Shown here: positions 12,544 to 24,415 of the stretch, piece by piece
Position numbering within the stretch: position 1 is the stretch's first letter
How the letters are laid out: each line of letters begins with the position of its first letter
NCBI GenBank assembly: GCA_021789915.1
Contig: JAJYIV010000002.1
Span: forward strand, 613-64,612
Direction of reading: 5' to 3'
Source: a bacterium
GTDB lineage: Bacteria; Patescibacteriota; Patescibacteriia; UBA9934; GWF2-40-263
DNA length: 64,000 bases
The notes under the pieces: model-generated
Seen by the model: only the letters and a program-made list of their open reading frames with translations
The model's database searches: none
What the model was told of the DNA's origin: nothing
Made by a program: the position numbers and the translations under genes

Positions 12544-13602
12544 TCAAATCAGCGCGTCCAGCAGGGCAAGGGCGACGCCCAGCGCCGCGGCGACATACGC
12601 GACGACCCACAGGCGCATGACGATTTGCGGCTCCGGCCAGCCGCGCGCTTCCAAATGATGGTGGAACGGCGCGGACAGGAAGAGCTTGCGCTTGAACAGG
12701 CGCCGCCAGGCAAGCTGGAGCAGCACGGACAGCGATTCCAGCACGAACACGAATCCGATCACCGGCAACAGCAGGGCGGCGTTCGTCAGCATGGCGATGA
12801 CGCCCAGCGTGATGCCGAGCGACATGGATCCCGTATCGCCCATGAAGAAACGCGCCGGGTGGATGTTGAACCACAGGAAGGCGAGCAGGCCGCCGATGAC
12901 GGCGGCGCAGAAGACGGCCAAATCGTATTTGCCCTGCGCGAACGCGATCAAGGCGTAGGCGGCATAGGCGGGAAACAGGACGCCGCCGGCCAGGCCGTCC
13001 AGGCCGTCCGTCTCATTGACGGAGAAGGCCGTCGCGATGAGGACGGCCATGAAGACCGGCACGTACCACCAGCCGATGTCGAAGGTGCCGAAGAACGGCA
13101 CGTGCAGGATGCGCCAATCGAGCTTGACCGTGAACCACCAGGCGCCGACGGCGGCGATGGCCGCGTAAATGAGCAGGCGGTGGCGGGCGCGCAATCCGCC
13201 GCCATGCGCGCCGATGCGGCGGATGTTGAAATAATCGTCCACCAGGCCGACCAGCGCCGAGGCGACGAGGGCGCCGAGCGGCAGCAGCGTCTGCGCGCGC
13301 GTCAGGAAAGACAGCCGCGCGAACGCCGAATCCGGCAGCAGCCAGCCGAGCAGCGCGCACAGGAGGATCACGGCGAGCACCGTTCCCCACACGAGCAGCC
13401 CGCCCATGGTGGGCGTGCCCGCCTTCCTGGCATGCAGCCTGGCATAGACCGGCGTCTCTTCCGCCAGACGGATCGATTTGCCCATCTTGTGCGATTCCAG
13501 CCAATGCAGCAGCGCCGGCGCCCACAGGAACGCCAGCAGGAACGTAAGCGAGGCGATGACCAGAAGGCGGATCAGCTGGAAAGACGCGAGAGGGAGAGTC
13601 AT
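12544..13602 (-). CDS. mraY: Phospho-N-acetylmuramoyl-pentapeptide transferase
   Basis: 352 aa polytopic membrane protein. Conserved MraY blocks (DDxxD-type acidic motifs, NIHPARFFMGDTGS). Confidence 0.9.
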   Translation of the reverse strand: MTLPLASFQLIRLLVIASLTFLLAFLWAPALLHWLESHKMGKSIRLAEETPVYARLHARKAGTPTMGGLLVWGTVLAVILLCALLGWLLPDSAFARLSFLTRAQTLLPLGALVASALVGLVDDYFNIRRIGAHGGGLRARHRLLIYAAIAAVGAWWFTVKLDWRILHVPFFGTFDIGWWYVPVFMAVLIATAFSVNETDGLDGLAGGVLFPAYAAYALIAFAQGKYDLAVFCAAVIGGLLAFLWFNIHPARFFMGDTGSMSLGITLGVIAMLTNAALLLPVIGFVFVLESLSVLLQLAWRRLFKRKLFLSAPFHHHLEARGWPEPQIVMRLWVVAYVAAALGVALALLDALI

Positions 13603-13725
13603 ACACGCTGAGACCCCTGAAAAACCGATGGGTGTTCGTTGTCCGCCGGAGGCGGATCCGGCTCTGCCGGAAATGGACTGCGGAACCCGCGAGACGAACA
13701 GGCGCGATTTTGCAGAGGTCTCACA
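13596..13725. repeat. TIR-bounded structured element, copy A (5' leader region of mraY)
   Basis: gagacccctgaaaaaccgatgggtgttcgttgtccgcc...ttttgcagaggtctc. Terminal inverted repeat GAGACC(C/T)CTG / CAGAGGTCTC. Second copy at 24256-24415. Confidence 0.45.
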
Positions 13726-14116
13726 GGTTAAGCAGCACCATGAAGGTGGACGCGATGAGCAAGACGGTTTCGACGAACACGGTCAGGCCGAGAAAAAACA
13801 AGGCGATGAGGCGCTCGCGGCGGAAGGCCCAGGCGCCCACGGCGACATTCACCGCAAGGACGGCCAAGCCGAAGGCGGCCGGCGTGAAGAGCCGCCACCA
13901 CGGCCCGAACTGGTCCACGCCGAAATAAACCGTGCCGTGCAGCGGCACGTACATGCCCGGCGTCGCGCGCGGAAAGACTTTCCAAAACGGCAGGAAGGCC
14001 GTGAGCGCGACAAGCAGGAGAGAGACGGCGGTCAACCACCGGTAGGCGCGCGAACGGGCGAACAGATCGCGGAGAGAGGCGGCAGCGGCCCCCGACGCGT
14101 GACGGAGCGCGCGCAT
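13721..14116 (-). CDS. Small integral membrane protein (131 aa, 4 TM)
   Basis: Hydrophobic helices (LLLVALTAFLPFW, AAFGLAVLAVNVAVGAWAF, LIALFFLGLTVFVETVLLIA). No assignable family. Confidence 0.5.
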   Translation of the reverse strand: MRALRHASGAAAASLRDLFARSRAYRWLTAVSLLLVALTAFLPFWKVFPRATPGMYVPLHGTVYFGVDQFGPWWRLFTPAAFGLAVLAVNVAVGAWAFRRERLIALFFLGLTVFVETVLLIASTFMVLLNL

Positions 14117-14117
14117 A

Positions 14118-14402
14118 CTACTCGGCCGCAGGGATTTTTCGCCCGGCAGGGCCCGGGATGCCGACGTCTTCCGCCGTGGCCGACGCCGTCACTTCCTTCA
14201 CCCACGGCAACGCTTCCTGCAGCGCCATCTCAACGCCCATCCTGAGCGTGATCGCCGACATCGGGCAGCCGTGGCAAGCGCCCTGCAGGCGGACGCGCAC
14301 GACGCCCGTGGATTCGTCGAAATCGACCAGTTCGATGTCGCCGCCGTCCATGCGGAGCGCCGGCCGCACCCGTTTCAAGATTTCCTCGATTCGTTCGCGC
14401 AT
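14118..14402 (-). CDS. NifU-like Fe-S cluster assembly domain protein
   Basis: MRERIEEILKRVRPALRMDGGDIELVD...CHGCPMS matches the NifU C-terminal (Nfu) domain with CxxC. Start chosen at MRER (ATG 14400-14402). Confidence 0.7.
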   Translation of the reverse strand: MRERIEEILKRVRPALRMDGGDIELVDFDESTGVVRVRLQGACHGCPMSAITLRMGVEMALQEALPWVKEVTASATAEDVGIPGPAGRKIPAAE

Positions 14403-14445
14403 AGGCGTGCAGAGTATAGCCCGAGGCGGGTCTTTGGCGCAATCA

Positions 14446-14480
14446 AAACGCCCCGTCTGCATGCAGGCGGGGCGCGTTTT
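14446..14480. terminator. Bidirectional hairpin terminator downstream of rpmA
   Basis: aacgccccgtctgcatgcaggcggggcgtttttc, a near-perfect palindrome with GCATGC centre. Same motif family as 24424-24447 and 42872-42899. Confidence 0.55.
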
Positions 14481-14482
14481 TC

Positions 14483-22652: not shown

Positions 22653-22749
22653 CGCACGCGCGTCCGCGCGGTTCGTGAGCCCGACGCTCACGGCCGCCGC
22701 GGGCGCGATCTTTTTTGTAAACCAAACCCCGCCAGGTTTCTTTTTTGCC

Positions 22750-23205
22750 TCATGTCACTTCGTCGCGAACCGCCGCCAGCAAATCTTCCAACCGCGCGAA
22801 CAGCGGCAACCGGAACCGGTCGCAAACCATCTCGACGTTTCCCTTGCGCCAGAATCCGTCCGGGCAGCACACCAGGACGTGCTTGTCCTTCACCAAGCCG
22901 AGCTCGAGCAGGCTGATCGGACTCTTGGTCGCCGGATCGAAATAAAACGCGACGACGTCCGCCCGGTCGAGTCCGTCCATCTCCCACGTGACCTGCCGGT
23001 TGAACTCGGGGTTCGCCATGGATTGCTTCCAGGAGGCGTCCCATGCGGCACGCCGCGGATTCAGCACGGTCGCGTCGGTGTCCGCGAGCGCGGCGACCGC
23101 TTTCGCCTGCCAGGGTTCGGCGGCCCCCATCTCGATGCTGCCGGCGAGGAAGACGACGGGGGACGCGGCGTCGGCGAAGGAATCGGGCGGCTGGATGTGG
23201 CGCAT
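22750..23205 (-). CDS. Nucleoside 2-deoxyribosyltransferase-like protein
   Basis: 151 aa. PVVFLAGSIEMG...DVVAFYFD...SLLELGLV pattern is typical of this Rossmann-like family. ATG at 23203-23205. Remainder of the 487-aa track ORF is Arg-rich artefact. Confidence 0.55.
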   Translation of the reverse strand: MRHIQPPDSFADAASPVVFLAGSIEMGAAEPWQAKAVAALADTDATVLNPRRAAWDASWKQSMANPEFNRQVTWEMDGLDRADVVAFYFDPATKSPISLLELGLVKDKHVLVCCPDGFWRKGNVEMVCDRFRLPLFARLEDLLAAVRDEVT

Positions 23206-23343
23206 AGGAAGGAGACGGCCGTCTTTGTACCACGGCGCCCCGATCGGCGCGAGCCGCGGATGGCAGGCGGCGATTGACAAGGTGCGAAAAAAGACCGAAG
23301 GTACCCGCGGTTCATCGCGGCCGCAAGCCGCACGGAGGGAACC

Positions 23344-24144
23344 ATGATTTCCGAGACGAAGATCGAGATCGTCACGCACGTAACGATAGAGGAACAGCCC
23401 GGCCGGAACGTCTGCGCGAACGACTATCGCAGCATTCTGCCACGACCCAACGACGACGGCATCCTGCTCGACCGGGAGACGGTCGAGCGCTTGTTCGCCG
23501 CGACGGATCTCGATGCGTTCCTCTCGTCCCTGCCGGGAATCTCGACGGATACGTGGCACCGTCACGCCGTCCTCGCGAACGTCATCAAGTTCTCGGAACC
23601 GACGGACGGAAACGCGTTCGGCATCGTCCTCGCCTGGACGACGAAGCGCCACCCCGCCTTCGGCGGCGATCCGACGAGCATGATGGATTACGCCATCGGC
23701 GTGCTCCCCGTGCCGACCGAAACGGCGGCGGTGGCCGCGAAGCTCTTCGCGCGCCGCTCGCTCCTGGCGGACTTGAAACTCGACGACCGCGGCCAGCGCG
23801 AACGGCAGGAGGAAATCCTGAAGGCCATCGGATGGGACGACGGAGCCGAGACCGCGCAGGCGCTGCGCGCGCTGCGCGAGGAGATGATGAGACGCTTGGA
23901 CGAGCTCACAAAAGCGCTCGAGGCGCGCGAGCGGGCGCGGGTGCAGGCCGTCCTCGGCTTGGCCGGCGTGTCGAGCGCTCAGCTCGACGCGCGCGTCGCG
24001 GACGTCGATGGTCAGCTCGACGCGGCGTTCAATGCGATGGCGACGGATCCGAAGCGGCTCGAACCTACGGCGCTCGCGAAGTGCGAGCTCGACATCTACG
24101 GCGCCGTTCCGCCCATCCTGCACGCAAGACTCACGGCCCAATAG
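23344..24144 (+). CDS. Hypothetical protein (266 aa)
   Basis: Natural composition. Chosen over the opposing Arg-rich ORF. Followed by a terminator. Confidence 0.55.
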   Translation: MISETKIEIVTHVTIEEQPGRNVCANDYRSILPRPNDDGILLDRETVERLFAATDLDAFLSSLPGISTDTWHRHAVLANVIKFSEPTDGNAFGIVLAWTTKRHPAFGGDPTSMMDYAIGVLPVPTETAAVAAKLFARRSLLADLKLDDRGQRERQEEILKAIGWDDGAETAQALRALREEMMRRLDELTKALEARERARVQAVLGLAGVSSAQLDARVADVDGQLDAAFNAMATDPKRLEPTALAKCELDIYGAVPPILHARLTAQ

Positions 24145-24152
24145 CCGTTCTC

Positions 24153-24183
24153 GACGCCTCTCCGCGAGGCGTTTTTCTTTTCG
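24153..24183 (+). terminator. Rho-independent terminator
   Basis: acgcctc tccgc gaggcgt followed by ttttctttt. Confidence 0.55.
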
Positions 24184-24255
24184 GGTTCGAAAAAGCTCCA
24201 ACGGGATCGCCACCGCGGCGGGTATCGCTTTCTTTGGAGCTAAAGAAAGATTGAG

Positions 24256-24415
24256 ACCTCTGAAAAACTGATGGATTTTCGTTGTCAGCCAAAGGCTGAT
24301 CAGCCTCTGGCTGAAATGGGCTGCCGAGCCCCGCGAACCCTACTGAAACGTAGGGAGAGCGGGGTCGGCGGGCGCCCATGAAACGAAAAGACGCCGTTTT
24401 GCAGAGGTCTCGATT
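24256..24415. repeat. TIR-bounded structured element, copy B
   Basis: gagacctctgaaaaactgatggattttcgttgtcagcc...ttttgcagaggtctc. Shares both ends and internal blocks with 13596-13725. Confidence 0.45.

Follow-up and report, generated by a model that had tools for sequence, protein, structure and literature searches.

The 64,000-nt stretch of DNA analysed here (contig JAJYIV010000002.1 of assembly GCA_021789915.1; hereafter the window) carries two short structured elements, copy A (13610-13722, plus strand), next to mraY, and copy B (24253-24411, plus strand). [quoted passage not shown] A first-pass annotation of the window had called the two copies MITE-like on account of their 10-bp terminal inverted repeats and had offered, instead, a cis-regulatory RNA such as an mraY leader; the first of these proposals is the one borne out below. 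Insertion, 4-bp duplication of the target, multiplication to several copies and decay by deletion are all shown for the family.

Two related elements with inverted ends

Copy B is an intact member of 159 bp, made of a 128-nt core plus a 30-nt module, and scores 133.9 bits with a covariance model of the family (R1). Its terminal inverted repeats occupy 24253-24268 on the plus strand (GAGACCTCTGAAAAAC) and 24396-24411 on the minus strand (GAGACCTCTGCAAAAC, reading inward), and the tetranucleotide GATT is found immediately outside both of them, at 24249-24252 and at 24412-24415. The 30-nt module of B (24285-24314, plus strand; TCAGCCAAAGGCTGA TCAGCCTCTGGCTGA) is palindromic and matches itself over 24285-24314. 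Copy A is an internally deleted member of 113 bp with no recognisable target-site duplication; its terminal inverted repeats lie at 13610-13625 on the plus strand (GAGACCCCTGAAAAAC) and at 13707-13722 on the minus strand (GAGACCTCTGCAAAAT, reading inward), and its module, a double mini-hairpin, at 13642-13671 on the plus strand (TCCGCCGGAGGCGGA TCCGGCTCTGCCGGA). R1 was built without copy A and nevertheless scores it at 58.8 bits (E ~3e-11); the similarity of the two copies is far above chance.

Both copies start with GAGACC(C/T)CTGAAAAAC(C/T)GATGG, end with TTTTGCAGAGGTCTC and share a long left block. Their inverted ends, GAGACC(C/T)CTG and CAGAGGTCTC, are exact over 10 nt and extend as an imperfect inverted repeat to ~28 nt; within the window, the 15-mers of the ends are confined to these elements, apart from a few weak matches. 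In a pairwise alignment 77% of the columns are identical and a 46-nt stretch is confined to B; A has kept the 30-nt module and lost the central hairpin. Within the module the two copies differ by three double substitutions, all of which preserve pairing. We take B to be an intact, recent copy and A to be an older one. The two structured copies of the first-pass annotation are thus real, as is the location of A between mraY and the gene upstream, and their limits, which had been given as 13596-13725 and 24256-24415, had been drawn a few bases too wide. One of the internal blocks that they had been said to have in common, cccgcga, does not stand at homologous positions; A lacks the central hairpin.

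A family in Uhrbacteria and Parcubacteria

In order to find further copies, as the first-pass annotation had recommended, we scanned species-representative genomes and metagenome contigs with the 22-mer GAGACCNCTGAAAAACNGATGG, which returned 10 and 13 loci, respectively. After removal of duplicates and of three matches without a right end (L004, L018 and L023, which also lacked a match to the model and were treated as chance or coding matches), ~17 distinct full elements were left; over all exact-pattern scans of genome and metagenome collections, the count of distinct copies in CPR genomes came to ~20. They come from Uhrbacteria and Parcubacteria metagenome-assembled genomes (MAGs) and from groundwater and lake metagenomes, and the family is present in at least five genomes of these groups of the candidate phyla radiation (CPR), with up to four copies per genome. 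Four copies belong to MAG CAZPPQ01, and on one Parcubacteria contig (L010) a stretch of 8 kb holds three to four. The genome of the window has copies A, B, C and D; C, recovered from the other assembly of this organism, shares 97% identity with B, and D is a diverged relative that is described below. Copies at unrelated loci of one genome (L005, L009 and L012) are 96-98% identical, and the median identity in the family is 84%.

The canonical element is 126-130 nt long, and copies span 87-159 bp, the shortest being an 87-nt deletion variant (L020). The additional 30-nt double mini-hairpin of B and C is, in this data set, carried by A, B and C only. Every copy has GAGACCNCTG(A/C)AAAAC at both termini, within imperfect inverted repeats of 16-28 bp. 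None of the copies contains an open reading frame (ORF), and, read inward from the left end, each of the three frames meets a stop codon within 33 nt.

MAG CAZPPQ01 (SRP062349_co5_334; L005, L007, L009 and L012) is labelled as an uncultured gammaproteobacterium. This label is probably wrong: close homologues of its RelA/SpoT protein (68-72% identical), where they are named, all belong to Patescibacteria or Uhrbacteria. Spread of the family across phyla is not supported. A scan of IMG/VR with the left-end pattern and a BLAST search of B against plasmid and phage collections gave no match.

A chance similarity between two sequences, or an artefact of assembly, would have been conceivable when a first reading of the window had given only two copies. 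The model E-values, which run from 1e-11 to 1e-33 across the copies, the recovery of the family from many unrelated samples and the identity of copy A in four independent assemblies (the window and three others, in which its sequence is unchanged) make such an explanation vanishingly improbable. The MraY protein encoded beside A also has exact matches in MAG GCA_027328745.1 and in two other assemblies; its homologues bear the names Uhrbacteria or Patescibacteria, which places the window in a CPR bacterium. As for copy B, two contigs end inside it, at element positions 78 and 31, and an NCBI MAG contig, judged by its coordinates, ends within it as well, giving three assemblies that are broken there.

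Target-site duplications and empty sites

Perfect 4-bp direct repeats are located exactly at the element boundaries in 8 of 20 copies (binomial P ~1e-10). The duplicated tetranucleotides are GATT (copy B), TATC, CTAA, TATC, TTCA, ACAA, AATA and TCTA; they are A/T-rich and often overlap stop codons. When left and right flanks from different copies were paired as a control, only 5 of 380 pairs matched, and boundaries offset by 1-4 nt gave no match at all. Three further copies match at three of the four positions, and L017 is flanked by a 5-bp repeat, CCACA. In the mechanism that we propose, a transposase acting in trans would bind the GAGACC-type inverted ends and make 4-bp staggered cuts in the target. 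Our guess would be a DDE enzyme, perhaps one from the IS5 superfamily, in view of the GAG ends and 2-4 bp duplications of its IS427 and IS1031 groups.

Next, we compared the sites of the elements with orthologous sites in relatives. The gene order L27-NifU-ORF131-MraY-FtsW-MurG is conserved among the relatives compared, and the element upstream of mraY is missing from those whose MraY is 86%, 80% and 76% identical to that of the window. The stop codon of ORF131 and the start of mraY are separated by 4 nt in two of them, L027 and L030 (MraY 86% and 76% identical, respectively), and by 12 nt in a third, L029. Exact removal of the 113 nt of A yields ...CTG TAG CGTGT ATG..., which is similar to the ORF131/mraY junctions of the relatives. 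Likewise, the copy of L007 lies between the convergent genes parB and relA, and the same gap measures 2 nt in L035 (RelA 92% identical) and 29 nt in L032. Finally, two diverged, D-like copies in L034 are both missing from the orthologous sites in L032, which indicates that D-like elements are insertions too. Empty orthologous sites are thus found at four junctions: ORF131/mraY, relA/parB and the two sites of L034/L032. At exactly the same ORF131/mraY junction, L028 (MraY 82% identical) carries an unrelated palindromic insert of 97 nt (362-458); insertions seem to have landed here repeatedly.

The contexts of the copies have little in common. The genes beside them are functionally unrelated (mraY, tsf, rplA, ftsZ/nrdR, parB/relA, mnmA, glycosyltransferase genes, a nucleotidyl transferase gene and tRNAs), and copies are found in both orientations between co-directional, convergent and divergent genes, usually separated from them by a few nt. 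Members of the GAGACC family were found only between genes, where they occupy very short, A/T-containing gaps at the ends of genes and positions beside tRNA genes; this preference for gene ends plausibly reflects target composition plus tolerance.

The window itself offers two such contexts. Copy A lies between mraY (12544-13602, minus strand; identified by the Pfam domains Glycos_transf_4 and MraY_sig1) and a 131-aa ORF (13721-14116, minus strand), whose TGA stop codon takes its G and A from the last two bases of the element, while the first base of the element is 7 nt from the ATG of mraY. With A in place the two genes are 118 nt apart, as against 4 nt in the empty-site relatives. Since it sits inside the operon, donates bases to a stop codon and lies 7 nt before the mraY ATG, A is presumably co-transcribed as a strong hairpin. 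What this would do to mraY expression is a matter of speculation: RNase III cleavage, attenuation, or the use of an AGAGG/GGGG stretch as a ribosome-binding site could be imagined. Copy B is placed between a 266-aa gene (plus strand) and a tRNA-like gene (24470-24545, minus strand). The latter matches the Rfam tRNA model with 39.8 bits and is called tRNA-Ala(agc) by ARAGORN; its anticodon stem is badly mispaired, its CCA end is encoded, and it is followed by a terminator-like hairpin at 24425-24455.

These observations bear directly on the proposal that the element is a cis-regulatory leader RNA, whose fold would sense a ligand or protein and gate mraY and other downstream genes. The strong fold with compensatory variation that is described below would suit such a role, as would the distance from A to the mraY start codon and the fact that several other copies end 6-8 nt before start codons on the opposite strand. 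However, the empty sites, and above all the 4-nt gap at the same junction in the closest relatives, refute it as the primary explanation. Moreover, the downstream genes share no common function, the elements are found in both orientations, some copies (B, L007, L010 and L019) are situated downstream of genes or tRNAs or between two convergent genes, and 4-bp duplications flank the copies. No Rfam family matches either: a search of the whole window at gathering scores gave nothing relevant to the elements, and one at E-values up to 10 gave no hit around A and, around B, only noise besides the neighbouring tRNA. We therefore regard a leader RNA, and with it the mraY leader of the first-pass annotation, as highly improbable. 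That annotation had also named target-site duplications and random locations as the findings that would make the element a plain MITE, and it is these that we observe.

Related families and exchangeable parts

The first-pass annotation had missed a further full-length, diverged relative in the window, copy D (8042-8164, minus strand), which scores 70.9 bits with R1 (E ~4e-14) and 120 bits with a second model, R2. D has the rod architecture and the internal motifs of the family and ends of a different sequence, which are perfectly inverted (AAAACCGCCT...). It begins 1 nt after the tRNA-Lys gene and is followed on the plus strand by TTTTT. Relatives of the same type are present in L007 (86-208) and twice in L034 (14092-14213 and 16568-16691). 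A ~50-nt tRNA-like minihelix (GGGCGGGATGGGCGCAAGCTCGTGAGGGTTCGATCCCCTCTCCCGGCACCA) was seen directly after tRNA-Leu(caa) in L032 (13545-13597), L034 (14040-14091) and L007 (~20-72), and D-like elements insert immediately after it.

GAGACC-type ends are, in turn, found with different interiors in two sister families. Family 2 is represented by an element of 152 bp at 9417-9568, which has the ends GAGAGTGTTGTAAATCTC and GAGACCGTTGCAAAACTC, matching at 14 of 18 positions when read inward, and a different interior that forms a hairpin (z -7.4). It is flanked by GATCG repeats, of which the one on the right is displaced by 1 nt. The family recurs at 8197-8217 (plus strand; GTCGAGTCTTGCAACGGTCTC) as a truncated right end that is identical to 9548-9568 at 19 of 21 positions. 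The supposed shorter relatives of the right end of A and B at 8213 and 9559 are explained by these two features, 9554-9568 being the right end of the family-2 element and 8197-8217 its truncated counterpart. Family 3, found in CAZPPQ01, carries GGGACCTCTGCAAAAGTC at each of its ends and is flanked by a duplicated TTGT. In addition, an Uhrbacteria element (L013, 933-1065) has the exact 22-nt left end, while its interior differs and its right end is degenerate (..ACAAGGTCTTC), a further case of modular ends.

In the segments that follow the two family-2 right ends (8218-8235 and 9569-9586) there are 9 nt and then GCTTGAC, upstream of plus-strand genes that begin at 8298 and ~9660; this heptamer may belong to the element or represent a -35 region common to both. 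A candidate sigma-54 promoter at 8193-8207 was discarded by eye, its GG-to-GC spacing being off by one. Family 2 also marks a discontinuity between assemblies. The contig DAHWTR010000018.1 of GCA_027328745.1 (L001; 14035-14359) matches the window at 99.9% down to position 9417, with mismatches mostly in the family-2 element, which is 92% identical there, and continues into unrelated DNA. At the point of divergence it has a second, 92%-identical family-2 copy, followed 10 nt later by copy C. In our view this is probably a chimeric join, or a rearrangement, located at a MITE.

A conserved fold with compensatory changes

A single strand of the element folds into one long rod-like hairpin. For copy B the predicted free energy is -93.8 kcal/mol, far below that of shuffled sequences (z -11.7; z -10.6 when folded as DNA), and for copy A it is -54.4 kcal/mol (z -5.1). 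The covariation for which the first-pass annotation had suggested an analysis is present: across 16 copies and 48 pairs, 96.6% of the cells are paired (97.8% in the outer helix), and in 18 pairs both partners have changed. Covariation scored 0.26 as against 0.105 in shuffles, none of 500 shuffles reached the observed value, and controls with slid pairings gave at most 7 double-change pairs. Pair-preserving changes are found in all helices. As covariation is present here, it does not by itself separate the MITE reading from that of a leader RNA.

In the alignment, tandem G.A mismatches are also conserved at three places (positions 22-23, 32-33 and 53-54), which lie about one and two helical turns apart. 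On the strand read from left to right there are 37 G.U pairs and 11 A.C mismatches (21 and 11 when one invariant column is left out); this excess of G.U falls on a strand that conflicts with the usual direction of transcription. Two known RNA motifs were considered by eye and rejected: a hammerhead core, because CUGAUGG/CCGAUGG breaks the invariant C3, U4 and A9, and a K-turn, because the G.A loops are symmetric and have no 3-nt bulge.

Several of our observations weigh against the interpretation of the family as an ordinary MITE. There is no target-site duplication at A, at copy C or at the D-like copies. The D-like relatives keep the interior motifs together with unrelated end sequences, which is a poor fit to a model in which only the ends matter, and the family has far more pair-preserving variation in its interior than expected of a neutral MITE interior. 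There is also a marginal bias in orientation, with 11 antisense and 3 sense copies in co-directional contexts (a hand tally; P ~0.06). Furthermore, neither the window nor ~400 kb of related loci yielded an autonomous element or a transposase whose ends would match. The loci searched contained no pair of inverted ends 0.7-3 kb apart, and no transposase domain was detected by Pfam in 20 large ORFs of the window outside the annotated region or in the genes of the L001 region. The mobilising enzyme and its family are, as a consequence, only inferred.

One way to account for the fold is that a mobile element has been co-opted by its hosts as an RNA hairpin, acting as a terminator, a stabiliser or an RNase III site, an addition to the MITE reading rather than a replacement for it. 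Selection on RNA would explain the covariation, with changes in all helices and conserved G.A mismatches. D, placed between tRNA-Lys and a run of T, and other copies directly after tRNA genes are where such hairpins might serve, and the Correia and SPRITE MITEs do play such roles (PMC10969869). On the other hand, the excess of G.U over A.C is on the strand that is usually not mRNA, and the sites in question are without the element in close relatives. On balance, we think co-option possible and rather unlikely.

Alternatively, the fold could be a recognition feature for mobility through single-stranded DNA, of the type of REP/REPIN-RAYT or IS200/IS605. The structure is kept while the terminal sequences vary between subfamilies, the hairpin is imperfect with conserved mismatches, and the marginal orientation bias could reflect the direction of replication. 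Against this, the elements have clear, variable 4-bp duplications and inverted ends of 16-28 bp; variable 4-bp target duplications are not known from single-strand HUH elements, which also lack long inverted ends. Nor did partial Pfam scans detect a Y1/RAYT (HUH) gene near any copy. We regard single-strand mobility as improbable.

Since D-like interiors are kept with different terminal stems, and the ends of families 2 and 3 and of L013 go with different interiors, ends and interior behave as separable modules. Together with the compensatory pairing, the spaced G.A mismatches, the strand-specific excess of G.U and the possible orientation bias, this exchange of ends and interiors leads us to a tentative proposal, to which we give a minor chance: the rod-shaped fold, and not the end sequence alone, might be selected or recognised. 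The elements could then be CPR-wide mobile hairpins with a structure-specific single-stranded intermediate, or domesticated modules for RNA processing or termination.

Comparison with known elements

Prokaryotic MITEs are defined as elements of less than 500-800 bp with terminal inverted repeats and duplications of 2-10 bp that are eroded as copies grow old; they lie between genes and form stable stem-loops (PMC10969869; PMC11602168). The present family agrees with what is expected of a MITE in its size (within 50-800 bp), its lack of coding capacity, its inverted repeats (longer than the minimum of 10-15 bp) and its duplications, and it is multi-copy, with empty sites in relatives. The MITE that has been studied best is the Correia element of Neisseria (CREE/NEMIS), which is also non-coding and 100-160 bp long, with inverted repeats of ~16-28 bp, short duplications and deletion variants (in our family, A and the 87-bp L020). 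Many Correia copies lie, like ours, at gene boundaries and are co-transcribed as stable hairpins, which for our elements is presumed. Correia elements duplicate TA. Our family differs in its CPR host, its 4-bp duplication, its unrelated end GAGACCNCTG(A/C)AAAAC, its compensatory variation and G.A mismatches, and in that we found no parent insertion sequence (IS).

The IS427 and IS1031 groups of the IS5 superfamily have GAG ends and 2-4 bp duplications. These groups and their MITEs may thus resemble the present family in their ends, the length of the duplications and their A/T-rich targets, which is no more than a lead; the family differs from them in that no transposase gene was found and its duplicated tetranucleotides have no YTAR/TNA consensus. 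Elements derived from REP/REPIN-RAYT and IS200/IS605 are likewise short, abundant, intergenic imperfect palindromes for which the hairpin form matters; variable duplications and long inverted repeats, both present in our family, are not known from them. Finally, Rickettsia palindromic elements (RPEs) are small palindromic mobile repeats of reduced genomes, tolerated at the extreme ends of genes; their sequences are unrelated to the GAGACC family, which is located between genes only.

The genomes of CPR bacteria are small, with little space between genes, and by the usual account they contain few mobile sequences. Here, an active-looking MITE family and at least two sister families cross species boundaries within Uhrbacteria and Parcubacteria, and split tightly coupled essential genes (ORF131/mraY, ftsZ/nrdR and relA/parB). 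In the literature that we searched we found no paper on MITEs in CPR, and a large MITE survey does not mention CPR (PMC11602168). The elements are also of practical use for the assembly and annotation of MAGs: metagenome assemblies break at the same places, and this explains contig ends as well as the probably chimeric join in GCA_027328745.1. We would caution against annotating structured repeats of this kind as riboswitch-like RNAs. Their structural conservation is the aspect that could yield novelty, either in how the elements move or in co-option at the RNA level.

Other repeats in the window

A second small palindromic repeat family, with the core CCTCCCCTT-NNN-AAGGGGAGG and a second hairpin, has ~7 copies in the window, at 15580-15646, ~1509-1565, 52561-52630, 53403-53456, 60805-60874, 62611-62653 and 63800-63866. 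One of these palindromes lies, in frame, inside the gene of a PUA/SAM-methyltransferase (14886-16211, minus strand). The encoded protein differs from its orthologues by three in-frame insertions, 12-20 aa long, and in each of them the palindrome is translated as LPL(E/A)(K/R)G; they resemble the in-frame insertions of RPEs.

Two further features were recorded. ARAGORN calls a 94-nt tRNA-Ala(ggc) at 40523-40616 (minus strand) that has no Rfam tRNA match and may be an intron-containing or a false tRNA. At 19235-19333, within a hypothetical gene, a unit of 45 nt occurs twice with a spacing of 9 nt; one of the units is lacking in L002, where the product measures 123 aa as against 141 aa in the window, an in-frame copy-number polymorphism of 18 codons between nearly identical strains.

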